Shown here one piece after another: positions 1-15,115 of a stretch of 64,000 nucleotides of DNA. A program made the translations under genes and the position numbers. This DNA comes from a virus. The stretch's first letter is position 1. The number at the start of each line of letters is the position of its first letter. The notes under the pieces were generated by a model. That model was not told where the DNA came from. It saw nothing but the letters and a program-made list of their open reading frames with translations, and ran no database searches. Location of the stretch: positions 96,001-160,000 of IMG/VR virus record IMGVR_UViG_3300045988_034373; one strand, given 5' to 3'.

Positions 1-1
1 C

Positions 2-838
2 CCAGAGCATAGAGTTAGATTCAATAACGATGATGTTCGTAATATGTTAGGTGACTATTGGGTTCCTAACAGAGAGAAGGTTGTTACTGCAACTTATAAC
101 ACTGTACTAGCTTATAGTATGGAGAAAGGTTATAATATTGTAGTTGATAACATGAACCTTAATCCTAAGACTTGTACTGAGTTAGAGAAGATGGTTAAGG
201 ACTTTAACGAGAATTATATCTATGATTGGAAGTATGAAGTTGAATACAAAGACTTCTTCATCCCAGTTGAAGAGTGTATTCGTCGTGATGCTATGAGACC
301 TAATCCAATAGGAGAGAAGGTTATTAAAGCAACCTGGAGAAGGTATCGTGATTTTATTATCCAAGAAGATATTAAAGGTATGTTAAAGAGAGCACCTAAG
401 CATGTAGATGGCGGACGTCCTGTTATATTAGTAGACATGGACGCTACATTATGTCTAAATACCACTGGTAGACCTTACTTCGGAGAAGGCGCAGCTGAGG
501 GTATGCTGGATGATATAGCTATCGAAGGTACTTGTATGCTTGTTAGACGTATGTATGAGAAGTGTAAGGTATTCATTGTTACTGGTAGGGAAGGTACTCC
601 AGAAATCATAGCTGCCACTAAGAAGTGGTTAGCTAAGCATGATGTTGTTGTCGATGAGTTATTCTTTAGACCAGTTAAGGATTATAGTCCTGGAGCTGAT
701 TGTAAGAAGAAAATCTATGAGGATAATATCAAAGGTAAGTATAATGTTCAATTCGTTCTTGAGGATAACTATAAGTGTGTCAAGATGTGGAGAGAACAAG
801 GCTTAGTATGCTTGCAACCTAATGAAGGAAAGTTCTAA
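2..838 (+). CDS. polynucleotide 5'-kinase / 3'-phosphatase (T4 PseT/Pnkp-like), 5' end outside the window
   Basis: The frame is open from nt 2, with no stop before the ATG at 44. The C-terminal half of a kinase domain is visible (VVDNMNLNPKT, RRDAMRPNPIGEKVIK). It is followed by a HAD phosphatase with the DxDxT motif LVDMDATL, IVTGR, a Lys cluster and LEDN. Confidence 0.7.
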   Translation, partial: PEHRVRFNNDDVRNMLGDYWVPNREKVVTATYNTVLAYSMEKGYNIVVDNMNLNPKTCTELEKMVKDFNENYIYDWKYEVEYKDFFIPVEECIRRDAMRPNPIGEKVIKATWRRYRDFIIQEDIKGMLKRAPKHVDGGRPVILVDMDATLCLNTTGRPYFGEGAAEGMLDDIAIEGTCMLVRRMYEKCKVFIVTGREGTPEIIAATKKWLAKHDVVVDELFFRPVKDYSPGADCKKKIYEDNIKGKYNVQFVLEDNYKCVKMWREQGLVCLQPNEGKF

Positions 839-1006
839 TGGCAATATTAGTAGGACAGCTAATTGAAATACTGAAACAATTCGACCCTGATAGAGAAGTG
901 GTAATACACACTCTTTAAAAATGTTGACGTTAATGGGTACTTTGTGCAGAAAGATATAAATGATACCAATTTTTTACTTAACAGACTTAGACGTAATTCC
1001 ACGTGA
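838..1006 (+). CDS. small hypothetical protein encoded in two frames (838-918, then +1 frame 917-1006)
   Basis: The ATG overlaps the upstream stop (TAATG). Twenty-six codons (MAILVGQLIEILKQFDPDREVVIHTL) end at TAA 916-918 inside CTT-TAA-A. The +1 frame stays open for 29 more codons (KNVDVNGYFVQKDINDTNFLLNRLRRNST). Its TGA (1004-1006) overlaps the GTG of the next ORF (GTGA coupling). Confidence 0.35.
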
Positions 1007-1341
1007 CTGATTTGGATAAGAGGTTCTTAACTAATACTGATGAAACTGGTAGGTTTATTGTTAAATCTCTAGTTACTGGCAAGAAGTATTATGTTGAACC
1101 AATAGGCAATGGACACCCTGCTGATTGGGGTGATATTAACCCTGCTACTAAGAAGGTAGAGGGAGATTATGGTCAGAAATATACTGGCTGTGTATCTGAG
1201 AAGGAATCATTAATAACTCCTGAGAATGGTTTCAAACTTATTGAAACTCTTGAAGCTGGTATGAGTCCACTTAGTGTAGTATATCAAAGAGATTTGGAAT
1301 ATGAGAAACTAATGGACAAATCAAATGAAATTCAAGGGTGA
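1003..1341 (+). CDS. hypothetical protein
   Basis: 112-aa ORF with a GTG start overlapping the preceding TGA. No motif recognised. Confidence 0.5.
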   Translation: MTDLDKRFLTNTDETGRFIVKSLVTGKKYYVEPIGNGHPADWGDINPATKKVEGDYGQKYTGCVSEKESLITPENGFKLIETLEAGMSPLSVVYQRDLEYEKLMDKSNEIQG

Positions 1342-1864
1342 TATTATTATAACAGACCCATGTTATATAATTAAAGAAGACTCTGATGATTGGAGTAAGT
1401 GTGGTTGGGGTGAGAGCATGAGTGTACTAGGTCTTACAACCTATATCTCTGAATCTACTCTTTATGGTGATTGGAGTTGTTCTACTTGGTCTACACCTCG
1501 TAAGGATGTAGAAGCACAGTTAGAAGAGCTTAATACTCTAGGAAGAGCAAGATGGGAACTTATGAAGCAGTATGGAGAAGACTCAGTTCAAGCTAAAATC
1601 TACGATGATAAGATAGCTGATGCATCTTTAAACATCAAGAAAATTGGACACTTCTGTGCTGATGCTGGTATGGTGGCTGTGTTCCTATTGGACGAAGTAT
1701 TGAAATATAATCCCGACTTCGATTATCATATTAACAGAGAGTGGACTACTACACTAATCAAAGACTTTGATGGTGAAGTAAACTACTACGTTGATAATGA
1801 AGATGATGCTCACATCATCGGAGTAGGTAATGTTAACTTCTTCACTACACAAACAGGATTCTAA
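1325..1864 (+). CDS. hypothetical protein
   Basis: 179-aa ORF overlapping the previous gene by 17 nt. GDIIITDPCY ... FCADAGMVAVF gives a loose resemblance to DUF4241-type proteins, which is not secure. Confidence 0.55.
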   Translation: MKFKGDIIITDPCYIIKEDSDDWSKCGWGESMSVLGLTTYISESTLYGDWSCSTWSTPRKDVEAQLEELNTLGRARWELMKQYGEDSVQAKIYDDKIADASLNIKKIGHFCADAGMVAVFLLDEVLKYNPDFDYHINREWTTTLIKDFDGEVNYYVDNEDDAHIIGVGNVNFFTTQTGF

Positions 1865-1865
1865 T

Positions 1866-2108
1866 ATGAAATTCAATTTGTACGAAGACGTAAAGGTATG
1901 TACTTGGCGTAGATACTCTTACGAAGTAGAAGCTGAAACATTAGAGGAAGCTGTTGAGCTGGTTAGAGATGGGGAGGTAGATAGTACTGACATGGAAGAG
2001 TTCTATGATGCTGACTACTTTCTAACTCCTGCAAACAATGAAGGTCGTGCCACACAAGAAATCTATTCAGCTAAAGATGATAAATTGTTGTACTCAAATA
2101 CAGATTAA
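1866..2108 (+). CDS. hypothetical acidic protein
   Basis: The ATG at 1866, just after the upstream TAA, is preferred over the track start at 1830. 80 aa. Confidence 0.5.
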   Translation: MKFNLYEDVKVCTWRRYSYEVEAETLEEAVELVRDGEVDSTDMEEFYDADYFLTPANNEGRATQEIYSAKDDKLLYSNTD

Positions 2109-2110
2109 CA

Positions 2111-2869
2111 ATGTATAAGTTTAATGGAGGAAATGGCGCTGTAGTCTGTGATGGATGTAGTGTCATTATGGAACAGAATATTCCATTTGATAAGTATCGT
2201 AAGGAGCATAGTGGTTATGACTTCTGCGAACAATGCCTAAGTAATCTTACTATAGTGGATAACTTTGATATGATTGAGAATATCTTGGAATTTAACAACC
2301 AAGATGAGTTCTACTTTCTACAGATTATCCAACGTAAGAAAGATGGCAATGTAACTCAAATTGGAAACAATGGTTATAGAACTATCAAGACTTACTATAT
2401 CTTTAGTAAAGACCAGTTCCTAACCAAGAAAGAGAAGATTAAAGAACTATGCCTCAAGAATAATGCTAGAGCATACATCCATCTTAATAGAAGGAATGCT
2501 CAAGAGGTAGCATTGGCTTCAATCCAACAATATGCCAAATTAGTTTCAGAAGGTAACTCTTACCAGGGTTACAGAGTATGGGATAGTGCGTGTGGTGGAA
2601 ATAGAGCTAGAGGCTATAAACCATTGTGGGTGGTTGATGTAGACTCCAAAGACCCAGAATATTTAAAGACAGTTATTGAACTGGTTAATGAATGTAGGGG
2701 TGCTGAGGAGAATAAGGTAAGGTATCAAATTCCTACACTACATGGTTATCATCTAATAACTATTGGATTCGATGTTCAACAGTTCAGCCAAAAGCTGGCT
2801 ATTAAGAACATGGACCCGATTGATATTCAGAAGGATAATCCTACTTTGTTGTATTATGCAACTGTTTAA
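2111..2869 (+). CDS. zinc-ribbon protein with a DxD / G-x-H / D acidic-motif domain (possible AEP primase-polymerase or Pol-beta-type nucleotidyltransferase)
   Basis: N-terminal CDGC...CEQC. The C-terminal half carries CGGNRARGYKPLWVVDVDS, TLHGYHLIT and PIDIQKDNPTLLYY. The function is tentative. Confidence 0.6.
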   Translation: MYKFNGGNGAVVCDGCSVIMEQNIPFDKYRKEHSGYDFCEQCLSNLTIVDNFDMIENILEFNNQDEFYFLQIIQRKKDGNVTQIGNNGYRTIKTYYIFSKDQFLTKKEKIKELCLKNNARAYIHLNRRNAQEVALASIQQYAKLVSEGNSYQGYRVWDSACGGNRARGYKPLWVVDVDSKDPEYLKTVIELVNECRGAEENKVRYQIPTLHGYHLITIGFDVQQFSQKLAIKNMDPIDIQKDNPTLLYYATV

Positions 2870-2928
2870 GGCTTTAGAAATAAGTGCTGTATTAGATTAC
2901 TCGTTAGGATTTATAAAAGCAAAACACA

Positions 2929-3153
2929 ATGAGTAATTTACCATTAGGAGCAGAGAATGACCCTTTTGCTCCGTACAACGTTCAAGAAGAGACGTTCAAA
3001 TTTGACTTGGGTGTTAAAGGTATAGCATGGTATGAATACTATGGCTATTTAGACATTGATGAAGCTAAGGAGACTATTAAGCAACGTCTTACAGCAGCTT
3101 TATCACAGCTTGGAGATATTGATATTAATGATGTAGACATAGCTATATATTAA
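2929..3153 (+). CDS. hypothetical protein
   Basis: 74-aa ORF. Its stop overlaps the polA start (TAATG). Confidence 0.5.
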   Translation: MSNLPLGAENDPFAPYNVQEETFKFDLGVKGIAWYEYYGYLDIDEAKETIKQRLTAALSQLGDIDINDVDIAIY

Positions 3154-5321
3154 TGATATATTTAGTAACCAAGCAACAGTCTCTTTGGGCTTCTGACAGA
3201 TATAAGGTCATTAGTGCTGAAGAGGCTTTAGAACTATTAGCACCTCTCAGTGTAGTAGAGCTGGATACTGAAACTATGGGTTTAGACCCGTATACTAAGG
3301 AACTATTAACTGTTCAACTTGGTTGTGCAGACTTCCAAGTAGTTATTGATTGTACATCTGTTGATATACACCTATTTAAGGAGTATATGGAGAATCCACA
3401 AAGGATGTTCTTAGGTTGGAATATTAAGTTTGACTTGAAATTCCTATATCACCAGAGAATCATTCCCATGAGGGTTTATGATGGTTATCTAGCCGAGAAA
3501 TTACTTTGGCTAGGCTATCCAGCAGGTATGCACGAGATGAGCTTGAAGGCTGCTAGTATCAATTATCTAGGAGTAGATATGGATAAGTCTGTACGAGGTA
3601 AGATTATACAGACTGGATTAACAGAAGATGTTATTGTGTATGCTGCTGGTGATGTCTCTTATCTGGGTAAGATTAGAGATAAGCAACTTGAACAACTCGA
3701 AGCTAAAGGCTTATTAAAGGCTATTGACTTTGAAAATGAGTTTGTTAAGTGTCTAGCATATATAGAATATTGTGGGGCTAAGTTAGACGTAGGTAAGTGG
3801 AGAATTAAAATGACTACTGACCTTAATAACCTTGAAAGATATGAAGCAGAGCTAAATGATTGGGTAGAGCGTTATTGTCATGAATATAGTGATAAGAGCT
3901 ATACTATCAATCAAGTTATCCATATTGATAAATGGTATAAGACAGAGGATGCACTCAAAGAAGAGAGAGCTAAATTACCTCTTAATGCTGTTAGAGCACC
4001 AGAGTTTGATTCTACTGGAGCGAGTCATGACAGTGAAGCTTATGTCATTAAGCAAACTGGTAACTATTGTTCTGTAAATATGCAGGGCGATTTGTTCAGT
4101 GGGTTTGATACTAAGCCAAGATGTCATATAAACTGGACTAGTTCCCAACAAGTAATCCCATTGTTTGAAGAATTGGGATTGAATCTAAGAGTATTGGATA
4201 AGAAGACCAAGCATTATAAGAAGTCTGTGGATATTAAAGTGGTAGAACCGCAGGCATCTAAGAGTCCTCTAATTCCAATCTATATAAAGTACAAGAAAGC
4301 TGCTATCATCGTTAATACCTTTGGTCAGAAGTTCTTGAACTTGATAAACCCCGTTACTGGTAGAATACATGCCAATTTCAATCAGTTAGGAACGGATACT
4401 GGTAGGTTAAGTTCAACAGAACCTAATCTACAGAATCTACCACATGATGCTCAGACTAGAGCGTGCTTTGTTTCCGATACAGGTAACAAATGGATTTCAG
4501 CCGATTATAGTGGTCAAGAGTCATATCTAATGGCATCTATGGCTAACGATGAGGCTATGTTAGAAGAACTTACTAATGGTAGTGGTGACTTGCATAGTCT
4601 AACCGCCAAGATGGTATTCCAGCAAATCCCAAGGGATATGCCCCTAAAGGATATTAAGAAGAACTTTAAAGACCTAAGGCAAGAAGCCAAAGGTTATGAG
4701 TTCTGTTTCAATTATGGTGGTCAAGACAGTACCTTAATAAGGAATTATGGTCTTGATGCCAAGAGAGCTAAAGAAATCTATGAGAACTATATGTCAGGTT
4801 TTGCTGGCTTAAAGAGGTATCAGGATTTCAGAAGAGTAGATGTTATGCGTAAAGGTTATATCTTATTAAGTAAGATAACTGGTCATAAAGCATATATCTA
4901 TGATTATGATGAACTTAAAAGACAAATGGATAAGCAAGAAGACCCTGAGTTCTGGGCTTATTATAGAGAAATGAAGCAGGAAGACCCTGATTGTGACACT
5001 GTACAAGGTGTTAGACGTTTAGCCAGGCGTAAAGCAGAGTCTGAGAAGCAATCTATTAATTATCCAATTCAGGCTGCTGGTGCATTGTGTTTTAAGTTAG
5101 CATCTATAAAGCTATTCAACTGGCTATTAAAGAATGGCTTGTTATTCAAGGTTAAATATTGTATTCCAGTACATGATGAAATTAATCTTGAAGCTCCAGA
5201 AGAGATTTCACAAGAAGTTGCAGATATATTAGTTAAGTGCATGGTAAGTGCAGGTAAACCATTCTGTACAAGAGCACATTTAGGTGCTGATGTAGAGATT
5301 GGCGACCATTGGATTCATTAA
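3153..5321 (+). CDS. polA: family A DNA polymerase with 3'-5' exonuclease domain
   Basis: Exo I ELDTETMGLDP. RIHANFNQLGTDTGRLSSTEPNLQNLP. Motif A DYSGQESYL. Motif B RQEAKGYEFCFNYGG. Motif C IPVHDEINLE. Confidence 0.9.
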   Translation: MIYLVTKQQSLWASDRYKVISAEEALELLAPLSVVELDTETMGLDPYTKELLTVQLGCADFQVVIDCTSVDIHLFKEYMENPQRMFLGWNIKFDLKFLYHQRIIPMRVYDGYLAEKLLWLGYPAGMHEMSLKAASINYLGVDMDKSVRGKIIQTGLTEDVIVYAAGDVSYLGKIRDKQLEQLEAKGLLKAIDFENEFVKCLAYIEYCGAKLDVGKWRIKMTTDLNNLERYEAELNDWVERYCHEYSDKSYTINQVIHIDKWYKTEDALKEERAKLPLNAVRAPEFDSTGASHDSEAYVIKQTGNYCSVNMQGDLFSGFDTKPRCHINWTSSQQVIPLFEELGLNLRVLDKKTKHYKKSVDIKVVEPQASKSPLIPIYIKYKKAAIIVNTFGQKFLNLINPVTGRIHANFNQLGTDTGRLSSTEPNLQNLPHDAQTRACFVSDTGNKWISADYSGQESYLMASMANDEAMLEELTNGSGDLHSLTAKMVFQQIPRDMPLKDIKKNFKDLRQEAKGYEFCFNYGGQDSTLIRNYGLDAKRAKEIYENYMSGFAGLKRYQDFRRVDVMRKGYILLSKITGHKAYIYDYDELKRQMDKQEDPEFWAYYREMKQEDPDCDTVQGVRRLARRKAESEKQSINYPIQAAGALCFKLASIKLFNWLLKNGLLFKVKYCIPVHDEINLEAPEEISQEVADILVKCMVSAGKPFCTRAHLGADVEIGDHWIH

Positions 5322-5322
5322 T

Positions 5323-5544
5323 ATGGGTAAATATTTAGACTTAAGCTCAGTAATTGATGTTGAACCACCTGTATCACAGGTATTACCTCTCATTGAGGAT
5401 GAAGACCTCCAAGATGAATTCTGGCAAAGACTTGATGAAGGATTCTTCAGAGACTTTGTTGAAGATTACTGTAAACAGCAGGACATCGAGATAATGAGGG
5501 AGATAATCGAAGAGGCATATCAATCATCTATTGATGCAGACTGA
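5323..5544 (+). CDS. hypothetical acidic protein
   Basis: The ATG at 5323, just after the polA stop, is preferred over 5299. 73 aa and Asp/Glu-rich. Confidence 0.45.
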   Translation: MGKYLDLSSVIDVEPPVSQVLPLIEDEDLQDEFWQRLDEGFFRDFVEDYCKQQDIEIMREIIEEAYQSSIDAD

Positions 5545-6061
5545 AATTGAAAGGAAGTTCCTAACTACTAACAGCTTGTTCAAAGAGCAGGCTGTTAGGG
5601 TTATGGACATACGTCAAGGATACATAGGGATTACCGATAAGGGAGAAGCTAGAGTATCTATAAGGGATGAGAAGGCATGGATTATAGTCAAGTCCAATGA
5701 AAGACTATCAAGATTGGAGTATGAAATTCCTATTCCTAAGAAGGATGCAGAGGAGTTACTTACAAGAACCTGCGGTAGAGTTATTCATAAGACTCGTTAT
5801 ATTATTCCAGCAACATCTGGTATGTTGAAATGGGAAGTAGATGAGTTCCATGAAGAGGACGACGGGCTAATTATTGCCGAGATAGAGTTACCATCAGAGG
5901 ACACACAGTTTGATAAACCTCAATGGCTTGGTAAAGAAGTAACACAAGATAGTACTTATTATAACTCTACACTCTCTAAGACGCCTTGGAAAGCTATTCA
6001 GAAGTTACATGCTGAAGCTAAAGCCTGGGATGATTGGAGAGATTCATTAGTAAAGAAATGA
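5534..6061 (+). CDS. CYTH-domain (triphosphate tunnel metalloenzyme) protein
   Basis: N-terminal ExExK signature (TEIERKFL), plus the later acidic strands WEVDEF and IIAEIEL. Confidence 0.7.
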   Translation: MQTEIERKFLTTNSLFKEQAVRVMDIRQGYIGITDKGEARVSIRDEKAWIIVKSNERLSRLEYEIPIPKKDAEELLTRTCGRVIHKTRYIIPATSGMLKWEVDEFHEEDDGLIIAEIELPSEDTQFDKPQWLGKEVTQDSTYYNSTLSKTPWKAIQKLHAEAKAWDDWRDSLVKK

Positions 6062-6324
6062 AGTATAGGAAGAAACCAGTTATCATTGAAGCTATACAGT
6101 TTGAAGACAATGCAGATTGTATATTAGCTATTCATGAGTTTATGGGGCAGGAAACTACAAGAGTCAACTATGAGGATAAAGATAATCCTTATATAAAGAT
6201 TGAAACTCTTGAAGGTACTATGAAAGCCTCAGTCGGAGATTATATCATCAAAGGTGTGAACGGAGAGTTCTATCCTTGTAAGCCAGATATATTTGAGAAA
6301 ACTTATGAGGAAGTTACTGAATGA
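6058..6324 (+). CDS. hypothetical protein
   Basis: ATGA overlap with the CYTH stop. 88 aa (MKYRKKPVIIEAIQF...). Confidence 0.5.
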   Translation: MKYRKKPVIIEAIQFEDNADCILAIHEFMGQETTRVNYEDKDNPYIKIETLEGTMKASVGDYIIKGVNGEFYPCKPDIFEKTYEEVTE

Positions 6325-7283
6325 AGCTGATTAAACCGTCATTTGAAATACTAGAACAAAAGCCTGGATTAGATGGGCTGTTACAACACATAGAAAGATG
6401 TGGTAGAACTTGTTATAAGTCGGAAGATAAAATAACAGAGGATAGTGCAGAGAAATTTGTAGGTATGTTAGTCAAACGTGGTCATACTGCGATGGTTGAG
6501 CATGGTACTGTATATTTGAAGTACGATATTATTGAGCATGGTTCTATGAACCTCCCAAATAAGTATCACTTCAATGAGTATTCTGTAGTAACTATCAATA
6601 ATGAACCTCTTCATGGATATGAAATTCCAGAATATAAAGAGAAGTTCAACGGACACACATATGCTTATATAACTACTAACTATAGAGTACTACTTCAGAA
6701 TGACTGGTTGGATGACCTTAAGTATCAGTGTGAGCCTTCAGAACACCACGTTAAGCGTGTTACTGTTAAGTTTGTATGCGATAGAGGTGTATCTCATGAG
6801 TTCGTAAGGCATAGAGTCTTTAGCTTTGCTCAAGAGAGTACTAGGTATTGTAATTATTCGAAGGATAAGTTTGGTGGAGATTGCACCTTCATTATTCCAT
6901 CCTGGATTGATAGTGGTGACTTTGAAATTCCTAGAACTCTACGTTGGGGTGAAAACCTAACTTATGAGGTAGAGAGAATTACTGGAGACTATAACAATGC
7001 TCCTTTAAGTGTATATTTGCAAAGCTTATTACAGGCAGAAGAAGCATATATGGAGTTGCTAAAGGAGGGTTGGATAGCTCAACAAGCTAGAGCAGTTCTT
7101 CCTAATAGTTTAAAGACCGAGTTAATTATGACTGGTACTATTGAGCAATGGGAAGGATTCTTTAAACTGAGATGTGCAAAGGACGCTCATCCTCAAGCTA
7201 GGGAGTTGGCGGTACCTCTGTATGAAGAGTTTGTCAAACGAGGATATATTACCGCACGAATATCTAAGGAGATATTATGCTAA
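6321..7283 (+). CDS. thyX: flavin-dependent thymidylate synthase ThyX
   Basis: ThyX signature RHRxxSxxxxSxR, present as RHRVFSFAQESTRY. ATGA start overlap with the previous gene. Confidence 0.85.
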   Translation: MKLIKPSFEILEQKPGLDGLLQHIERCGRTCYKSEDKITEDSAEKFVGMLVKRGHTAMVEHGTVYLKYDIIEHGSMNLPNKYHFNEYSVVTINNEPLHGYEIPEYKEKFNGHTYAYITTNYRVLLQNDWLDDLKYQCEPSEHHVKRVTVKFVCDRGVSHEFVRHRVFSFAQESTRYCNYSKDKFGGDCTFIIPSWIDSGDFEIPRTLRWGENLTYEVERITGDYNNAPLSVYLQSLLQAEEAYMELLKEGWIAQQARAVLPNSLKTELIMTGTIEQWEGFFKLRCAKDAHPQARELAVPLYEEFVKRGYITARISKEILC

Positions 7284-7405
7284 CAATACAAGTACTAATA
7301 GAGTATCCAGACCCAATGGATAACTGTCTACCTCCTCAAATCTACATCAGAGAATGGCGAGAGGTAGAAGTTACTCCAGAAGAGTGGTACAGAGTACTTT
7401 GCTAA
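7277..7405 (+). CDS. possible small ORF (42 aa)
   Basis: The ATG overlaps the thyX end (MLTIQVLIEYPDPMDNCLPPQIYIREWREVEVTPEEWYRVLC). It fills an otherwise non-coding gap, and there is no other support. Confidence 0.25.
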   Translation: MLTIQVLIEYPDPMDNCLPPQIYIREWREVEVTPEEWYRVLC

Positions 7406-7439
7406 TCCTATTGGACACCATTATTACAGAGTATAAATT

Positions 7440-7679
7440 ATGAAAATTAATTACACATCTGGATGTACCTGCGATAGTTTAACTATTGATGGTAAAGAAT
7501 CTGCGGATTTATCTCCGAAAGTTATTAAAGATGCTATAGTAAGAGCATTGGAGAAGATTGATGATATATCAACTCTTCAAGACATCTTGACAACTGTAGC
7601 TGAGACTGGAGAGTATGAAGATTTAGGACATTGTGAACAATGTGGAGATTGGATAACCTCCTATACTCTTGAAATTTGA
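7440..7679 (+). CDS. hypothetical protein
   Basis: 79-aa ORF with a C-terminal CEQCGD. Confidence 0.5.
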   Translation: MKINYTSGCTCDSLTIDGKESADLSPKVIKDAIVRALEKIDDISTLQDILTTVAETGEYEDLGHCEQCGDWITSYTLEI

Positions 7680-7680
7680 T

Positions 7681-8368
7681 ATGAAGGCTGAGGAGTACTT
7701 TGGTGACTGGATTGATGTTATTGACAAAGAGGAATTACGTAGAGTAGCAACTTGGGTTAATAAGATTAATTCAGCTAATCTATGTCCTTTCTCCTAAGAA
7801 CATCTTTAAGGCATTTAGGGCTTGCTCATTTAAGGACTGCAAGGTAGTCTTTCTTGGGCAAGACCCTTATCCTCAAAGAGGGGTAGCTACTGGGATACTA
7901 TTTGGTAATTCAGAAGATACTTCTGAGGAGTATCTATCTCCTTCACTTAAAGTAGTTAAAGAGGCTGCTATTAATTATGAAATTCCCCATAACCTTATAG
8001 AGTTTGACAATACGTTAGAGTCTTGGGCTAAGCAAGGAATCTTAATGATTAATACTGCTCTTACTTGTGAAGTAGGTAAAGTTGGAGCACACTTTGACAT
8101 ATGGAAACCCTTTATGTCTAAGTTGATTCACAACATGAGCTATAAAGACGGAGGTATGATTTATGTTCTGTTTGGTAGTCAAGCTGAGTTATTCAAGAAT
8201 GATATAGTAAACAGTCTGAAGACTATTGAGGTATATCATCCAGCATATTATGCTAGGACTGGTAAGAAGATGCCTAGTAGTGTGTTCACTGATATTAATC
8301 AAGCATTGAAGCAGCAATATAACTATCAAATAGAATTTTACAAGGAGACAGAATATGGAACATGTTAA
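7681..8368 (+). CDS. ung: uracil-DNA glycosylase, family 1; requires a +1 frame change at 7795
   Basis: Frame 1 (7681-7797) encodes the Ung N-terminus, ending LCPFS-TAA. Frame 2 is open from 7748 with no start codon before 8045. It encodes KNIFKAF, VVFLGQDPY, LESWAKQGILMINTALT and VYHPAYY, so the catalytic Asp, Tyr, Asn and His positions are all present. Confidence 0.75.
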
Positions 8369-8561
8369 TAGAAAGTCGGTGAATGATAAGCTACGTAAGT
8401 ATGACCATTTAGCTAAGGAAGATGACTTCATTGAGGTTACAGAATGGGCTAATGGTGAAGGTTGGGATGTTACTATAAATGATAGGGTAATCCCACTAAC
8501 TCGTGGCGAATTAGATGCCATTGACTATCTGACTAAAGGTTTAGATTACGATACTAAATAA
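8355..8561 (+). CDS. hypothetical protein
   Basis: 68-aa ORF overlapping the ung end. Confidence 0.5.
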   Translation: MEHVNRKSVNDKLRKYDHLAKEDDFIEVTEWANGEGWDVTINDRVIPLTRGELDAIDYLTKGLDYDTK

Positions 8562-8572
8562 TAATTGAAAAG

Positions 8573-9223
8573 ATGAAAGAACAGAAGTTTGAATTTAGTG
8601 CTAAGAACACCTTCTTCACCTCTGACACTCACTTTGGTCATGCTAACATTATAAAGTTATGCAATAGACCATTTAAGGATGTTGGGGAGATGAATGAAAA
8701 GTTGATTGAGAACTGGAATAAAGTAGTCCCAGAGGACGGTACAGTCTTCCACTTGGGAGATTTTGCCTTCGGTGGTAGTGGACTATGGAACAGTGTTATC
8801 CCTCGTCTGAATGGACAAATCTACTTGATTATAGGTAATCATGATAGAAAGAATCTAAGACAAGGTTATATGGATAAGTTTACAGCTGTATTACCACAGA
8901 TGCAGATTCAAATAGAGAAGAGAAGTATCTACTTGAATCATTATCCATTCCTGTGTTATGGAGGTTCATATCGTGACGATGCTGATGCTGTATGGCAGTT
9001 ATTCGGCCACGTTCATTCTGGTCCTACTAGTTCTGGATTGGATTGTGATAGGTTAGTTCATCTATTCCCATATCAGTATGATGTAGGTGTAGATAACAAC
9101 AATTATACTCCAATCTCTTGGGAAGAAGTAAAGACAAAGATTCAGCACCAAATAGATGAAGGAGTAGAGAAATCTGTCAAGGAACACACAATTCCTGACG
9201 AAGTGTATAAACTAAATGACTAA
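8573..9223 (+). CDS. calcineurin-like metallophosphoesterase
   Basis: Motifs SDTHFGH, GDFAFGG, GNHD and GHVH. Confidence 0.75.
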   Translation: MKEQKFEFSAKNTFFTSDTHFGHANIIKLCNRPFKDVGEMNEKLIENWNKVVPEDGTVFHLGDFAFGGSGLWNSVIPRLNGQIYLIIGNHDRKNLRQGYMDKFTAVLPQMQIQIEKRSIYLNHYPFLCYGGSYRDDADAVWQLFGHVHSGPTSSGLDCDRLVHLFPYQYDVGVDNNNYTPISWEEVKTKIQHQIDEGVEKSVKEHTIPDEVYKLND

Positions 9224-9443
9224 AATATCTTTAGAAATCGACGGTAGGGTATTATCTATGGAGTTACCTTATAATGATGCAACAGCGGAAGAACTTATTA
9301 AGGGCTTTTGTACACTGATGCATGGTCAGACATTCCTTATCTGTACTATTAAGGACTCTCTAAGAGAAGCTGCCCAAGATTATAAGGAGGATATAGAATT
9401 AGGTTATGAATCCAAACACTCTGAGGAAGATTTAAAAGGCTAG
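9216..9443 (+). CDS. hypothetical protein
   Basis: 75-aa ORF overlapping the previous stop. Confidence 0.45.
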   Translation: MTKISLEIDGRVLSMELPYNDATAEELIKGFCTLMHGQTFLICTIKDSLREAAQDYKEDIELGYESKHSEEDLKG

Positions 9444-9449
9444 AAGCTG

Positions 9450-9722
9450 GTGAGTCATTTATCACCAGTGAGCCAGGTAACTCAATGCTTTCCGTTATAT
9501 AAAAGTAATGAGAAGCATTTGGTTACCCCTATTAAGTGGGAAGATTGTAAGGTAGGTGATGTAGTGTTCTGTAAGGTTAGAGGTTCATGTGTAACTCATA
9601 AGGTCTATGCAGTAGACAATGAGAAGGGTTGCTTAATAGGTAACAACAAAGGACACATGAACGGCTGGACTAAGAATGTATACGGACTTGCTCATAAAAT
9701 TGACCAATCATTTAAAGACTAA
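9450..9722 (+). CDS. hypothetical protein
   Basis: 90-aa ORF with a GTG start; the true start is uncertain. GDVVFCKV...THKVYAV...LIGNN is vaguely S24/S26-barrel-like. No catalytic residues were identified. Confidence 0.4.
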   Translation: MSHLSPVSQVTQCFPLYKSNEKHLVTPIKWEDCKVGDVVFCKVRGSCVTHKVYAVDNEKGCLIGNNKGHMNGWTKNVYGLAHKIDQSFKD

Positions 9723-9728
9723 GAAAGC

Positions 9729-10424
9729 TTGAAAATATGTGTAACGTCTGACTTACATGGCATTCTTCCTAAAATAGAAGAGCCTTGTGAGGTAGTGTTG
9801 ATATGCGGAGATATTATGCCACTGCGTATGCAGAGGAACATCCCTCAGAGTGAAAAGTGGCTAAAGACCACATTCGCCGATTGGGTTAATAATCTCCCAT
9901 GCGAATCAGTAATCATGGTGGGAGGTAATCATGACTTTGCCTTAGCTAATATGTATAGGCAACCTCTAAAGATTAACTCAATCTTGACAAATCCTACCAA
10001 TGGTAAACTGGAACTATTAGATAATGAAGCAACATCCGTTATTAGTAAGGATGGTAAGGTATATGATATATGGGGAACTCCCTATTGTAAAATCTTCGGT
10101 AACTGGGCATATATGTATGAGCCAGAGACTTTGATTAAAGCATATGAATCTATGCCTCAGCATTGCGATATTGTTATATCTCACGATGCACCTAAGCTGT
10201 GTGGTTTAGGTGTTATTCACCAGAGATTTGACAGAGAAGATGCTGGTAATCCTTGGTTAGCTGATGAAATGCTTCGTAAACATCCTAGATACACATTCTG
10301 TGGACATATTCATAGTGGTGAGCATGAACTGCAAACCTTTGACGATATGAAGATGGCTAATGTATCTTTAGTAGATGAAACTTACACTGAAACTTTTAAA
10401 CCTTTATACCTCGATGTCGAATAA
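9729..10424 (+). CDS. calcineurin-like metallophosphoesterase (second copy, divergent)
   Basis: TTG start. Motifs SDLHG, CGDIM, GGNHD, SHDAP and GHIHSG. Confidence 0.7.
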   Translation: MKICVTSDLHGILPKIEEPCEVVLICGDIMPLRMQRNIPQSEKWLKTTFADWVNNLPCESVIMVGGNHDFALANMYRQPLKINSILTNPTNGKLELLDNEATSVISKDGKVYDIWGTPYCKIFGNWAYMYEPETLIKAYESMPQHCDIVISHDAPKLCGLGVIHQRFDREDAGNPWLADEMLRKHPRYTFCGHIHSGEHELQTFDDMKMANVSLVDETYTETFKPLYLDVE

Positions 10425-10623
10425 TAAAGTTGTAGTACAAGGAGGAGTTGGATTCCCTGGATTGTTGTTTATAGTACTGTTAGTTTGTAAACTATTTGGT
10501 GCTAACATAACATGGTTCTGGGTATTTGCTCCATTATGGATTCCGCTTGCATTAATAGCTGGATTCTTTATTGTATCAATTCTAATTGCAATACTTGTAG
10601 CATGGAAAAGAAAACTACTTTAG
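10414..10623 (+). CDS. small membrane protein (two predicted TM helices)
   Basis: The ATG at 10414 is preferred. Hydrophobic stretches are GFPGLLFIVLLVCKLF and WFWVFAPLWIPLALIAGFFIVSILIAILV. Confidence 0.55.
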   Translation: MSNNKVVVQGGVGFPGLLFIVLLVCKLFGANITWFWVFAPLWIPLALIAGFFIVSILIAILVAWKRKLL

Positions 10624-10739
10624 TAGTTGTGGACTTCCAGTATGACTTCTGTCTGCTGGGAGCACCACTCTACGTTCCTGGGTCTGATAAGGCTCTGTGG
10701 AACATTTCTCATTTAATTGAGAATAAGAAAGTTTTTTAA
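10602..10739 (+). pseudogene. 45-codon remnant of an isochorismatase/nicotinamidase (PncA-like) N-terminus
   Basis: MEKKTTLVVVDFQYDFCLLGAPLYVPGSDKAL matches the characteristic N-terminal strand and DFxxGG-L-V-PG region of the family. It then stops, and no continuation is found in any frame of 10740-10905. Confidence 0.35.
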
Positions 10740-10789
10740 TTCTAGGTTCAAAAGATTACTTAGTCCTATCATAGTACCTAGAGAACTAT

Positions 10790-10909
10790 ATGATTGACTT
10801 CCTAGAGCTAATCCTAGAATTAGTAAATGTTAAATCACGTAATGAGCTAGTGGCTCTGCTTGTTATGGGCGGAGTACTAGCCGTTATCTATTATTTGTTT
10901 CTTGTATGA
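10790..10909 (+). CDS. possible 39-aa membrane-anchored peptide
   Basis: MIDFLELILELVNVKSRNELVALLVMGGVLAVIYYLFLV. Its stop overlaps the next ATG (ATGA). Confidence 0.35.
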   Translation: MIDFLELILELVNVKSRNELVALLVMGGVLAVIYYLFLV

Positions 10910-11157
10910 AATTATATTATTTATTCTTATTGGTAATGTTCTTCTTAATGGGTTGTACTAATTCATCTAACATTAGTGGTCCAGATGTTATAGGGACATC
11001 TAAGATGAATGGGGATGTGTACAGGTACACCATTGATGAGCATGAGTATATAAAAATGGGTAATGGCTTTGCACACTCTGGTGCTTGTAAGAAGTGCAAG
11101 AAGGAGTTGGAAAGTACTATCCGTAAAATAGTTAAGGAGGAACGTTCACAATGGTAG
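10906..11157 (+). CDS. small lipoprotein
   Basis: Signal peptide with lipobox: MKLYYLFLLVMFFLMG-C. The mature part is about 66 aa, with CKKC. Confidence 0.65.
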   Translation: MKLYYLFLLVMFFLMGCTNSSNISGPDVIGTSKMNGDVYRYTIDEHEYIKMGNGFAHSGACKKCKKELESTIRKIVKEERSQW

Positions 11158-11711
11158 GAGTATTCTTTGGGTCTTTTGACCCACCCCATATTGGTCATGT
11201 TAATATTGTCACAGCTGCACTTAATTCTGGTATTGTTGACAAGGTTATAGTAGTTCCAGCATATAAGAGTGTATGGAAGAACACTGAAACTAAGTGGGAG
11301 TATAGACTCACTATGGCTAAGGAAACCTTTGATAACATTCCTGGAGTAGTTGTGGATGGCATTGAGTATCGTATCGCTAATGGAGAACCATTGCCTACTT
11401 ATAAGACCATTGAAGCATTAAAAGAGATTTATGGTGAGTTTATCATCGTAACATCTGCTGAGACTTATAAGGAGATTCCAAGATGGCAGCATGGTGAGGA
11501 GATACTAAAGGACAATAAGTTCTTAGTAGTAGATGTAGCACACTTTAATAGTGAGGATATTCCACATGATGAAGTGAAGGTTATCTATGCTCCTGATATT
11601 ACAATATGCTCTACAGCTATCAGAAAGTGGGTTGACAATGGTAGAATTATATTGCCATTTGTAACAGATGAAGTAAATTCAATAATTAGAAAGCTTGGGT
11701 TATACAAATGA
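11151..11711 (+). CDS. nicotinamide/nicotinate mononucleotide adenylyltransferase (NadD/NMNAT family)
   Basis: GSFDPPHIGH, the (H/T)xGH nucleotidyltransferase motif, and the C-terminal ICSTAIRKW (SxTxxR). Confidence 0.8.
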   Translation: MVGVFFGSFDPPHIGHVNIVTAALNSGIVDKVIVVPAYKSVWKNTETKWEYRLTMAKETFDNIPGVVVDGIEYRIANGEPLPTYKTIEALKEIYGEFIIVTSAETYKEIPRWQHGEEILKDNKFLVVDVAHFNSEDIPHDEVKVIYAPDITICSTAIRKWVDNGRIILPFVTDEVNSIIRKLGLYK

Positions 11712-12241
11712 GTCAAATCTATGTTTCAGGTCCTTGGTCTTTTGCTTCTGGAGTACAGCAAGTAGTTAAGAGTATAAAGGCTAAATCTAAGGGAGATAAG
11801 GTAGTTTATAGTGAGAAAGGAACTGAATATCAATTCTCTAAACTAGAACAATCCGACTATGTCGTATTCGTGTTGGATGGATTTGCATGGCAACAGAGGT
11901 TAGAAAGTATTTCTAAGGGAATGCTCTCAGAACTCATATGGTGTATTAATCATAGAGTTCCAATGTTCCTAGCTTACAAATCAGCTAACGGATTAGGCAT
12001 ATATGCAACTGAAATAGATGACAATTTAACCTTTAAGGGGATTGCAGGCACTGCTGACACCTTCTATCAGATTATAAACAATCAGTTTGGGACTATTGTA
12101 GCTCCAAATGATACTCCTGGGTTTGTTCTGAGTCACCAAGACACAGTATTAGGGAGTGATTGTGTATATTTGAAGGGAGAGTGGATAGCTGACCCATTAG
12201 ATTTCCTTAATGTTGAACAACCAAAGAGTTACTTTTATTAA
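11708..12241 (+). CDS. hypothetical protein, possibly with a nucleoside 2-deoxyribosyltransferase-like Rossmannoid fold
   Basis: ATGA overlap. IYVSGPWS ... SDYVVFVLDG ... GMLSELIWCINHRVPMFLAY resembles the NDT/DUF4406 pattern. The assignment is tentative. Confidence 0.55.
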   Translation: MSQIYVSGPWSFASGVQQVVKSIKAKSKGDKVVYSEKGTEYQFSKLEQSDYVVFVLDGFAWQQRLESISKGMLSELIWCINHRVPMFLAYKSANGLGIYATEIDDNLTFKGIAGTADTFYQIINNQFGTIVAPNDTPGFVLSHQDTVLGSDCVYLKGEWIADPLDFLNVEQPKSYFY

Positions 12242-12242
12242 T

Positions 12243-12785
12243 ATGAAGAACTTTCCTTTATTAGACGAGAATGGTAAGGAATGGTGGATTAGCCGTTCTA
12301 TTGCTGTAACAGGATGTATATTTACATTCCTAAATGGTAAGTGGTGTGTGCTAGCCAATAAGAGAGGTGAAGGCACTCCCGATTTCCAGGGAATGTGGAA
12401 TATGCCATGTGGTTACTTAGACTTTGATGAAACTACAGCACAAGCTGTGGTTAGAGAGGTTTATGAAGAGACTGGTGTCAAGGTGAATCCAGAGTACTTA
12501 CACTTCTGGAAGTTCAATGACTCTCCAACTCAGAATAGGCAGAATGTATCATTCAGATACTATGCTCTAGTTGATGCACAGCCAGGTAATATCAGTGTAG
12601 GCACTGGTAATGACAGAGGTGGTGAAGAGGACGAGGTAGAAGCTATTGGATGGATTCCAGTAGACTCTATTGATAAATATCAGTGGGCATTTGGTCACGA
12701 TGAGATTATCAAAGAGTTTACTGAGTGGATGCACTTAGAAGATGGAGATTTGGATATGCAAGACATAGACTTAGACCCAGTATGA
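12243..12785 (+). CDS. Nudix hydrolase
   Basis: Complete Nudix box GYLDFDETTAQAVVREVYEETGV (Gx5Ex7REUxEExGU). The ATG at 12243 is preferred. Confidence 0.8.
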   Translation: MKNFPLLDENGKEWWISRSIAVTGCIFTFLNGKWCVLANKRGEGTPDFQGMWNMPCGYLDFDETTAQAVVREVYEETGVKVNPEYLHFWKFNDSPTQNRQNVSFRYYALVDAQPGNISVGTGNDRGGEEDEVEAIGWIPVDSIDKYQWAFGHDEIIKEFTEWMHLEDGDLDMQDIDLDPV

Positions 12786-13159
12786 CATACTTTATAAGTG
12801 GACATAGAGACTTAACATGGGAGGAGTTTGCCAGATGGTATGCTCCTGCCATTAGTAAAGTCATTTGTACAGACAGTGAAGCTAAATTTGTTGTAGGAGA
12901 CTGTGAAGGTGCAGATAGAATGGCACAAGACTATCTATCATCCTGTGGAGTTTTCTTTAAGAATGTCACTGTATATCATATGTTTAAAGCTCCTAGATAT
13001 ATGACTAGAAGCTGTGTCCCTACACAAGGAGGTTTTACATCTGATGTAGAGAGGGATACGGCTATGACTGAGCACTCAGATTGTGATATTGCCTTTATTC
13101 GTAAGGGTAAGGAGTCGTCTGGAACTGCTCAAAACATTCTAAGAAGATGGACAAAGTAG
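12782..13159 (+). CDS. hypothetical protein, possibly SLOG/DprA-LOG-like (DUF2493-type)
   Basis: ATGA overlap with the Nudix stop. FISGHR ... VVGDCEGADRMAQ ... ERDTAM ... SDCDIAF ... SSGTAQN. The assignment is tentative. Confidence 0.55.
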   Translation: MTYFISGHRDLTWEEFARWYAPAISKVICTDSEAKFVVGDCEGADRMAQDYLSSCGVFFKNVTVYHMFKAPRYMTRSCVPTQGGFTSDVERDTAMTEHSDCDIAFIRKGKESSGTAQNILRRWTK

Positions 13160-13329
13160 AAGAATACTTCAATAATAAGAATCTGACTGATAAGGAAAGA
13201 TTTGAAGTCTTGAGGTTACATTTTACTAGTCTATTCCTACAACATCCTAAGATGCTCGAAGTTCTATCTTATAAGGATATAGTACTGAAAGCTAAAGAAT
13301 TTACCAAAGAATATCTAAAGCATGAATAA
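13147..13329 (+). CDS. hypothetical protein
   Basis: 60-aa ORF overlapping both neighbours. Confidence 0.45.
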   Translation: MDKVEEYFNNKNLTDKERFEVLRLHFTSLFLQHPKMLEVLSYKDIVLKAKEFTKEYLKHE

Positions 13330-13832
13330 GTTTATATTCCTAGACATAGATGGGGTTATGAATAGTAATCTCTTCTACTCTGAAAGAACCCAAGATAAGA
13401 GATATAATGATTGGATTAAAGAGCATCCTCAGCGTATAGCTTGGAATGCTTGTAATATTGACCCAAGAGCAGTGGAAAGGCTGAACAGACTTACTGATGC
13501 TACTGGAGCCAAGATTGTTGTATCTTCTACTTGGAGAAGTGATAGTAATTTGCAGGAAGTATTTAACCTTGTTGGAATTAAAGAACCTATACACGATGTA
13601 ACTCCTTATATGAGAAGTAGGCATAGAGGTTCCGAAATCCAAGAGTGGTTAGATAAGCAAACTGAACCTTATCGGTATGTAATCTTTGACGATGATACTG
13701 ATATGTTGGACTCTCAATTACCTTATTTCAATTCAATCTGATTGGTTGAAATGGGGTCTAAGTGATGAAGATGTTGAACAAGCAATACATATTCTAAATG
13801 ATACCGATACAACCGCTGAGACACATCTATAA
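13322..13832 (+). CDS. HAD-superfamily phosphatase (HAD_SAK-like); requires a +1 frame change near 13739
   Basis: HAD motifs FLDIDGVMN, VVSSTWR and VIFDDDTD lie in frame 2, which ends at TGA 13739-13741. Frame 3 is open from 13683 to 13832 and encodes DWLKWGLSDEDVEQAIHIL, the type of C-terminus I recall for this family. Confidence 0.65.
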
Positions 13833-13952
13833 TGACCCTTCATTGGATAGAGCACTTCTATTAAGGAAGCTAGCATCTCTCAGACTAAAAGAGTATGATT
13901 AGTATTGAAGAGTATGAGTATTTAAAACATTTAATAAGAAAGGAGAACGAAA

Positions 13953-14417
13953 ATGCTCAGAGAGCAAATGGGTGCACTTATTAAGCAATCAATGCTTGAT
14001 AAGAATGTAAAGAGAACAGAAGTATTGAGAGCTATCAAGAATGAGTTCTTGGTATACCAAACTGCTAAGGGTGCTAAACCTTTAGATGATGCAGCCGAGT
14101 TTACTATTCTTCGTAAGATGGTAAAACAGAGATTGGACAGTAGAGACCAATACATTGCAGCTGGAAGGAAAGACTTAGCCGATAACGAATCCAAAGAGAT
14201 TCTTGTGCTTGAGTCTTTCCTTCCGAGTGAAGCCTCACCTGAGGAAATTACTAAAGCAATCTATGAGGTTATCTCAGAGAAGGGTTGGGGTGACGGAGAG
14301 ACAGGTCCCCAAATCCCGAAGAAGTGCATGGGAGAGGCTATTAAGTTGGTCAAGGCAAAGCTTGCTAATGTAGATGGTAAACTGTTGGCTGATACAATTA
14401 AGACTTATCTTGTATGA
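13953..14417 (+). CDS. GatB/YqeY-domain protein
   Basis: LRAIKNE ... ILRKMVKQRLDSRDQYIAAGRKDLADNESKEILVLESFLP matches the YqeY family pattern. AGGAG lies 8 nt upstream of the ATG. Confidence 0.75.
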   Translation: MLREQMGALIKQSMLDKNVKRTEVLRAIKNEFLVYQTAKGAKPLDDAAEFTILRKMVKQRLDSRDQYIAAGRKDLADNESKEILVLESFLPSEASPEEITKAIYEVISEKGWGDGETGPQIPKKCMGEAIKLVKAKLANVDGKLLADTIKTYLV

Positions 14418-14626
14418 CACTAAAGGAAATAGTGACTCTTCCAGCTGAAGCAAAGTTTACTCATGCAATAGCTGGAACTCTTTACTATAGAATCACAACT
14501 GACAATATAGTAGTAGAGTTTCCTATTGATATGAATGATAAGGATGATGTAGGTACAACTACATTTGTAGCTTCTTATAAGCCTATTTACATTAATGAGG
14601 TACATAAGAAAGGCTATGGAGAATGA
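14414..14626 (+). CDS. hypothetical protein
   Basis: 70-aa ORF with an ATGA overlap. It is the last gene of the early block. Confidence 0.5.
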   Translation: MTLKEIVTLPAEAKFTHAIAGTLYYRITTDNIVVEFPIDMNDKDDVGTTTFVASYKPIYINEVHKKGYGE

Positions 14627-14729
14627 AACTTTGATTACAATTGATAAGTCTAAGTTAAAGTAATTGTACTGTGTAATAATTAACTAATATGTCTTACTCT
14701 ACTCGAATTTCATAAAATACTTGGTTTAA

Positions 14730-14761
14730 TTTGGTAATACTGCTTATAATGCTTATATTTG
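14730..14761 (+). promoter_or_regulatory. Bacteroidota-type promoter (-33 TTTG / -7 TAnnTTTG)
   Basis: TTTG (14730-14733), a 20-nt spacer, then TATATTTG (14754-14761). It sits about 40 nt upstream of the ATG at 14801, in the largest intergenic region of the window. Confidence 0.5.
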
Positions 14762-14800
14762 CAGAAATTAAGTGGTTAAACTGTTTAAACGTATTAATTT

Positions 14801-15115
14801 ATGAAAATCGAAGAGAAATTTAAAAAATTCCAACAAGGTGGTGCTGCACCTCAGCCAGGAGCTGAACAAGCAGGAGGAGCACCAGCCGAGGGAGCACCAG
14901 CAGAAGGTGGTGCACCTGCTGAGGGTGGACAAGACCCAATGCAACAGATTCTACAAGTAGCTGCTCAGGCAGTTCGGACACAGAATTGTGAAGCTGCGAT
15001 GGCTGTGTGTCAAGCCCTAATGCAAATCGCTCAAGGTGGTGCTGCTCAGGAACAAGCTCCTCAAGAGGAACCAACTTTTGCAAGGAAAGGTGCTAGACTA
15101 GTAAGAGTAAGATAA
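14801..15115 (+). CDS. small Ala/Gly/Pro/Gln-rich protein with N-terminal KFQQGG motif
   Basis: 104-aa ORF, visibly more GC-rich than its surroundings. It is flanked by the promoter above and the terminator below. Confidence 0.65.
   Translation: MKIEEKFKKFQQGGAAPQPGAEQAGGAPAEGAPAEGGAPAEGGQDPMQQILQVAAQAVRTQNCEAAMAVCQALMQIAQGGAAQEQAPQEEPTFARKGARLVRVR
14876..14929 (+). repeat. imperfect tandem coding repeat (G)APAEG x3
   Basis: gga gca cca gcc gag / gga gca cca gca gaa ggt / ggt gca cct gct gag ggt gga, translating to GAPAEGAPAEGGAPAEGG. Confidence 0.8.

Follow-up and report, generated by a model that had tools for sequence, protein, structure and literature searches.

A private single-base insertion interrupts the uracil-DNA glycosylase gene of a large crAss-like gut phage

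The uracil-DNA glycosylase (UDG) gene in the 64,000-nt stretch of viral DNA analysed here (hereafter the window) is interrupted, and its identity as a UDG and the retention of its catalytic residues are confirmed. Removing one T yields a single ORF of 687 nt encoding 228 aa, which matches intact homologues residue for residue. Most probably, a UDG which crAss-like phages normally encode in one piece has here been inactivated by a +1 T insertion that is private and very recent. On that reading the gene is a familiar phage gene with a new inactivating mutation, and the case matters little in itself; it does mean that the locus should be annotated as a frameshifted UDG rather than as a recoded one.

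Results

The UDG gene is read in two frames

Translation from the ATG at 7681 gives MKAEEYFGDWIDVIDKEELRRVATWVNKINSANLCPFS in frame 1, followed by a TAA at 7795-7797. Frame 2 has no stop between 7748 and the TAA at 8366-8368; its translation includes SPKNIFKAFRACSFKDCKVVFLGQDPY and SPKNIFKAFRACSFKDCKVVFLGQDPYPQRGVATGILFGN ahead of QGILMINTALT...VYHPAYY. Joining 7681-7797 (frame 1) with 7748-8368 (frame 2) produces a 228-aa family-1-type UDG. The locus does not form one translatable ORF, as frame 1 ends at the TAA and a scan for ATG, GTG and TTG finds the earliest frame-2 start at ATG 8045, which is Met122. The initial annotation had likewise reported a stop after 38 codons, an open downstream +1 frame and a first frame-2 start at 8045, and all three readings stand. 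The features are as follows, with residues numbered as in the repaired 228-aa protein:

7681..7797, plus strand: 5' UDG fragment; codons 1-35 native, then three shifted codons (P-F-S) and the premature TAA at 7795-7797
7788..7790, plus strand: lesion, a TTT run with one surplus T (TT→TTT), private to one sample
7791..8368, plus strand: rest of the UDG (native codons 37-228 and stop) in the +1 frame, with no canonical start before ATG 8045
7818..7866, plus strand: predicted RNA/DNA hairpin internal to the gene, GGGCUUGCUCA...UGGGCAAGACCC, including a 9-bp inner stem
7856..7870, plus strand: GQDPY water-activating loop, frame 2, aligned to LGQDPYH of solved UNGs
7862-7864, plus strand: catalytic D61, frame 2, aligned to solved UNGs
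7868-7870, plus strand: Y63 in GQDPY, frame 2
7901-7903, plus strand: F74, frame 2
8045..8368, plus strand: 107-aa C-terminal ORF (MINTALT...), the sole piece 3' of the break with a canonical start
8051-8053, plus strand: N124, frame 2
8237-8239, plus strand: H186, frame 2

The UDG identity given in the initial annotation, with catalytic residues retained, is supported, as a family-1 type, by profile and structure comparisons. The joined protein scores 41.1 bits against the Pfam UDG profile PF03167 (cut-off 24.3 bits) and matches solved family-1 Ung structures in the PDB with E = 4e-20 to 2e-19. In these alignments, the water-activating loop with the catalytic Asp (FLGQDPYP) pairs with ILGQDPYH, the strand with the uracil-recognition Asn (GILMINTALT) with GVLLLNTVLT, and the HPA of the catalytic His with HPS; the stacking Phe is aligned together with GQDPY, the Asn strand and the HP-loop His. 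The alignment is also ungapped across the junction, as had been proposed, with query lcpfsknifkafr set against IYPPAKDVFNAFR of Vibrio UNG. The protein thus shares with Crassvirales family-1 UDGs (PF03167) both its length class (about 222-228 aa) and the GQDPY loop, stacking Phe, LLLN-type Asn and HP-loop His. It differs from them in the +1 T that interrupts its ORF after codon 35-36 and, as far as the sequence indicates, in a putative Leu-intercalation loop reading HPAYYAR rather than HPSPLS.

Gene calling reflects the break. The 5' fragment is a separate 38-aa gene call on both the source contig and Logan contig L093, and the 107-aa C-terminal ORF is called separately on the source contig; the latter includes Asn124 and His186 and lacks the Asp/Tyr/Phe half of the active site.

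These observations suggest a simple course of events. An ordinary UDG gene of a large crAss-like gut phage would have gained a single T after codon 35-36, so that translation begun at ATG 7681 would pass through three wrong codons, reach a new in-frame TAA and end in a 38-aa peptide. Residues 39-121, including Asp61, Tyr63 and Phe74, would go untranslated with no canonical start ahead of Met122, and presumably no active enzyme would be made. The allele would then represent a very recent, tolerated loss of function in an accessory repair gene, not a recoding signal, and would fit a clade pattern in which UDG is strongly conserved overall while disrupted alleles still arise and circulate.

One extra T, private to one sample, accounts for the break

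At the junction, relatives read TGT CCT TCT CCT AAG AAC (C-P-S-P-K-N) and the window reads TGT CCT TTC TCC TAA G. Every relative examined at this site carries the unshifted TGTCC(T/A)TCTCCTAAG, or a diverged version of it, within a single ORF, and the sole difference at the break is one T added in TGTCC-T-TCTCCTAAG. A DNA alignment of the junction shows the extra T to be absent from 16/16 relatives; it is absent from L002 and L009, and from the 98-99 % identical strains L106, L107, L109, L111 and L112. The break sits 5-7 nt upstream of the TAA at 7795-7797, which is in frame because of the TT→TTT insertion and is therefore its by-product, not a signal.

This placement changes how the junction is to be read. 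The initial annotation had joined the frames at the TAA, giving LCPFSKNIF, on the argument that no other join preserves the spacing, and had implied that TCC-TAA-G is a specific or programmed shift site. In fact, any +1 join within the overlap 7748-7794 keeps the 228-residue spacing, and homologues place the break at the TTT of 7788-7790, with LCPSPKNIF as the native junction. The proposed shift site is also unsupported, since all relatives examined there are unshifted and the TAA exists only through the inserted T.

The window is part of a 182,000-nt ENA scaffold (ZEEV15-1_SAMEA3664750 scaffold_21), to which it is 100 % identical over every stretch fetched. The extra T is found in this ENA scaffold (L091/L095/L108) and in the separately assembled Logan contig L093 of run ERR1137206, both 100 % identical to the window, and the 38-aa product of the shifted frame is also catalogued from JGI/IMG. 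The presence of the same T in all three sources argues against an assembler error. Their naming suggests that the assemblies with the extra T come from one stool sample; they may share one sequencing run and do not by themselves prove an independent biological observation. An exact 25-mer containing the extra T had no match in IMG/VR or JGI metagenome contigs, and no independent sample with the allele was found there.

Most related phages carry an intact UDG under purifying selection

An intact, uninterrupted 228-codon UDG ORF is present in 76/80 IMG/VR loci, and more than 100 database homologues (60-96 % identity) each consist of one chain, 223-228 aa long. All covering strains from other samples that are 98-99 % identical over ~10 kb have an unshifted UDG of 228 aa (226 in one), and the protein is 55-57 % identical to the single annotated UDGs of cultured Bacteroides crAss-like phages. 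The initial annotation had named naturally two-piece homologues as the result that would overturn its reading. Homologues proved instead to be one-piece and without a frameshift, which removes the support for a programmed shift.

Selection on the gene is strong. The dN/dS of UDG against relatives is 0.03-0.09, with no signal of relaxed selection, and UDG in this clade is under strong purifying selection. The repaired window UDG is 8 nt and, at the protein level, 1 aa away from the intact copies most similar to it, and the lesion is for that reason very recent. Decay is not expected at such an age, so the downstream frame is still pristine; the 570 nt of open +1 frame, previously offered as evidence against a decaying pseudogene, are thus no argument against inactivation.

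Disrupted UDG alleles recur among related strains

At least ten other independent disruptive UDG alleles occur in related phage strains, several of them in more than one sample. A stand-alone 107-aa C-terminal ORF, from Met122 onward, is called on many related contigs, and one exact sequence of it (P0130) is found in 91 blocks of the collection, 28 of these with contigs of 50-200 kb. We surveyed lesions by aligning ten loci with this stand-alone ORF (L096-L105, UDG region about 2600-3324 in each) and found that the upstream lesion differs in most of them:

L097 and L104: C4→C3 deletion
L098: nonsense change, TGG→TGA
L096: 10-nt deletion
L100: G4→G3 deletion
L099 and L102: large deletions flanked by microhomology
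L105: deletion joining thyX to UDG codon about 117
L101 and L103: runs of N at the lesion, unreadable

Further disrupted alleles came from protein sequences and other loci:

P0122-P0127: N-terminal fragments that would fit length changes of an A5 run (A5→A4), a few bases 3' of the window site, judging from the protein sequences
P0020, P0021 and P0032: in-frame deletions, catalytic loop lost
L030: in-frame deletion, Asn strand lost

The proteins grouped with disruptive UDG alleles are P0020, P0021, P0032, P0046, P0100 and P0122-P0136. Deletion breakpoints of P0020, P0021, P0032 and L102 lie in or adjoin the 7818-7866 hairpin.

UDG is evidently dispensable in nature, its loss being viable and several disrupted alleles each occurring in more than one sample. 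This repeated loss in related strains supports the window allele as one more such loss. More broadly, this abundant gut-phage clade conserves UDG strongly but has lost it repeatedly in single populations, which makes it a candidate conditionally dispensable gene.

Two structural observations concern the same region. In the related strain L121 (positions 1-530), a 279-aa ORF with a faint LAGLIDADG homing-endonuclease match occupies the place expected for the UDG/metallophosphatase genes, which fits the reported high mobile-element load of large crAss-like genomes. Separately, contigs from different ENA assemblies (L092:1 and L094:1, a SPAdes/MEGAHIT pair) both end at window position 8043, 2 nt upstream of the Met122 ATG, and their next 558 nt are 100 % identical to the window. 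The shared end suggests an assembly-graph branch, as would arise if the sample(s) contained more than one structural variant of the UDG 5' half.

Private insertions cluster in the early region of the source contig

Ten single-base insertions and a 5-nt deletion are private to the source contig when it is set against strains of other samples at 98-99 % identity, and every one of them lies within window positions 900-14,600:

970 (T5→T6), 2873, 7398, 7788, 9431, 9489, 9711 and 14586: private T insertions, seven of them TT→TTT
13730 and 13887: private A insertions
about 919: private 5-nt deletion

They fall in small early accessory genes or spacers of the first 15 kb, many at gene ends. None is seen in the 49 kb of contiguous long late ORFs, a statement that beyond about 22 kb is judged from ORF continuity only; an exact-protein look-up for close relatives of the late region returned the source contig alone.

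This spectrum is a reason for considering a sequencing or read-level artefact, in which the phage has a normal TT and the extra T and the other private insertions come from the data. All ten private 1-nt indels are insertions, and between 3 and 13 kb there are five private T insertions against four private substitutions, so that insertions equal or exceed substitutions, a ratio abnormal for ordinary evolution. They are also limited to one sample, and the 25-mer search for the UDG insertion gave no match in IMG/VR or JGI metagenome contigs. The insertion-dominated spectrum hints at an unusual mutational process or a read-level artefact, a point against an ordinary inactivating mutation. The excess of 8 T over 2 A is not significant in a check for strand bias, and the enrichment of TT→TTT is moderate (p about 0.003, per-base model).

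Several observations nevertheless make an artefact unlikely. Two different assemblies match base for base, and the genes are normal in other samples (ZEEV15-1 scaffolds L116 and L121) that share both study and assembly series with this one. The cohort named in the scaffold was presumably sequenced on Illumina instruments, for which consensus-level indels in 2-3-nt runs are very rare. The distribution weighs against it too, as position-blind errors would all fall in the first 15 kb with a chance of about (15/64)^11, roughly 1e-7. The absence of indels from the 49 kb of late ORFs looks like a selection filter on real mutations, and the long ORFs from 15 to 64 kb are all intact, so the assembly is not generally error-ridden.

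If the insertions are real, the UDG break could belong to a burst of +1, mostly T, insertions, reflecting either a frameshift-mutator state or a Zeta-group 'yet unknown expression mechanism'; we regard this as quite improbable. Candidate sources may include the phage's own family-A polymerase or some process acting on the early region. The family-A DNA polymerase gene (window 3153-5321) shows a single private change, G249S, against six close relatives. A mutator polymerase was rejected as a candidate; G249S lies outside any identifiable motif and taken alone suggests nothing. Slippage is possible as a source of insertions because long homopolymers are rare in the genome: window 1-15000 has 37 % G+C and scarce long homopolymers, with 0 T5 runs, 2 T6 runs and 14 T4 runs on the plus strand and 3 A runs of at least 5. 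Yutin et al. (2021, PMC7886860) reported that Zeta-group phages show frameshifts they could not explain and wrote of 'yet unknown expression mechanisms'; were the expression option true here, the early genes with single-base insertions would still be expressed. The lesions are heterogeneous and non-conserved, just the reverse of the pattern expected from a recoding signal. Should reads confirm the insertion-dominated spectrum, this phage would offer a natural case, of a kind seldom seen, of mutation biased towards frameshifts.

Other genes show the effects of the private indels. Gene 'Y' (window 9406-9729; 107 aa in relatives, e.g. L092:1364-1687) carries three separate +T insertions and zero substitutions against the 99.4 % identical L092. 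The first +T also lengthens the upstream gene from 72 to 75 aa, and 74 native residues, the core of gene 'Y', are retained in a 90-aa ORF (9450-9722) that uses a new GTG as its start. Other private insertions trim gene ends (169→139 aa and 82→70 aa), and a 58-aa gene of relatives is uncalled on the source contig, at the place affected by the 5-nt deletion and by the insertion at 970.

Programmed frameshifting and a two-piece enzyme are poorly supported

We consider it very unlikely that compensatory or programmed +1 ribosomal frameshifting, at UCC-UAA-G or CCU-UUC, still yields a full-length active UDG. Its appeal is that a 0-frame stop directly follows the lesion, the +1 frame is open and the catalytic residues are all intact. 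Programmed +1 sites at a sense-stop junction include the bacterial prfB site (CUU-UGA-C) and the eukaryotic antizyme site (UCC-UGA-U). The UDG junction resembles them in having a sense codon, an in-frame stop and a functional ORF continuing in the +1 frame; its UCC-stop form is close to the antizyme site, and CCU-U would permit partial re-pairing. To our knowledge, neither UCC-UAA-G nor CCU-U is a documented bacterial +1 site, and re-pairing from UCC to CCU is poor.

In the window, by contrast, the shift is unconserved: it is found in none of the aligned relatives and in none of the 98-99 % identical strains, so no shift site has been under selection, and the stop was created by the private insertion just upstream. 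No upstream Shine-Dalgarno-like stimulator is visible (none in 7770-7794), there is no close downstream pseudoknot and no regulatory logic is apparent. A moderately stable hairpin does lie downstream of the lesion (fold of 7775-7900, -41.5 kcal/mol, z = -2.9). It was rejected as a frameshift stimulator, since it begins 21 nt past the stop and occurs just as much in relatives without the shift. A tRNA scan of the window found no tRNA gene, hence no frameshift-suppressor tRNA, and no single quadruplet-codon suppressor fits all the insertion sites. Elsewhere in the clade, UDG is broken by deletions, by nonsense codons and by -1 shifts, and no single recoding mechanism would rescue them all.

Precedent for such rescue comes from mitochondria, in which compensatory +1 frameshifting at single-nucleotide insertions is known (PMC5009743), and the Zeta-group frameshifts cited above (PMC7886860) may be counted on the same side. 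At most, judging from the sequence of the site, low-level +1 slippage may give a little full-length enzyme.

A natural two-piece UDG, in which the N-terminal peptide would combine with a C-terminal fragment initiated on its own to form the active enzyme, is given almost no weight: the 107-aa ORF is indeed called stand-alone in many related contigs, but their differing upstream lesions mark breakage rather than design, most genes are intact and in one piece, and the reading was rejected because no canonical frame-2 start codon serves residues 39-121, so that the Asp61, Tyr63 and Phe74 segment is not made.

Genomic context

Megablast of window 6000-10000 against GenBank phages gave no match, and the context was therefore drawn from metagenome contigs. 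Pfam matches on the encoding contigs give the following neighbourhood:

Neighbours: family-A DNA polymerase, CYTH-domain protein, ThyX, UDG and two metallophosphatases
Further neighbours: NAD-salvage genes, NUDIX hydrolase, HAD-family protein and YqeY-like protein
Beyond these: giant late ORFs, including the crAss 'muzzle' protein

UDG is among the nucleotide-metabolism genes of crAss-like phages (PMC7886860), and Zeta-group crAss-like genomes measure 145-192 kb (Yutin et al. 2021, PMC7886860). The source, a 182-kb human-gut crAss-like genome that fits this range, is probably a large crAss-like phage of the Zeta group.

Frameshifted or pseudogenised accessory genes of phage populations, and the gene fragmentation described in that group (PMC7886860), are similar to what we see, in that close strains differ in protein starts and ends and that even conserved motifs are hit by frameshifts and stops. 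The published cases differ in concerning RNAP subunits and intron- or intein-rich core genes (PMC7886860), whereas in the window it is small early accessory genes that carry the lesions, the giant late ORFs being intact.

Further along the window, an isochorismatase/nicotinamidase gene (10512-10739) is reduced to a 5' fragment, with a breakpoint at 10733/10734. Relatives contain an additional stretch of about 2.7-3.1 kb here, with the complete gene (193-194 aa) along with NAPRTase and NAD synthase; the window instead passes straight into the sequence that lies upstream of the NMNAT gene. The breakpoint is a deletion or recombination junction inside the gene.
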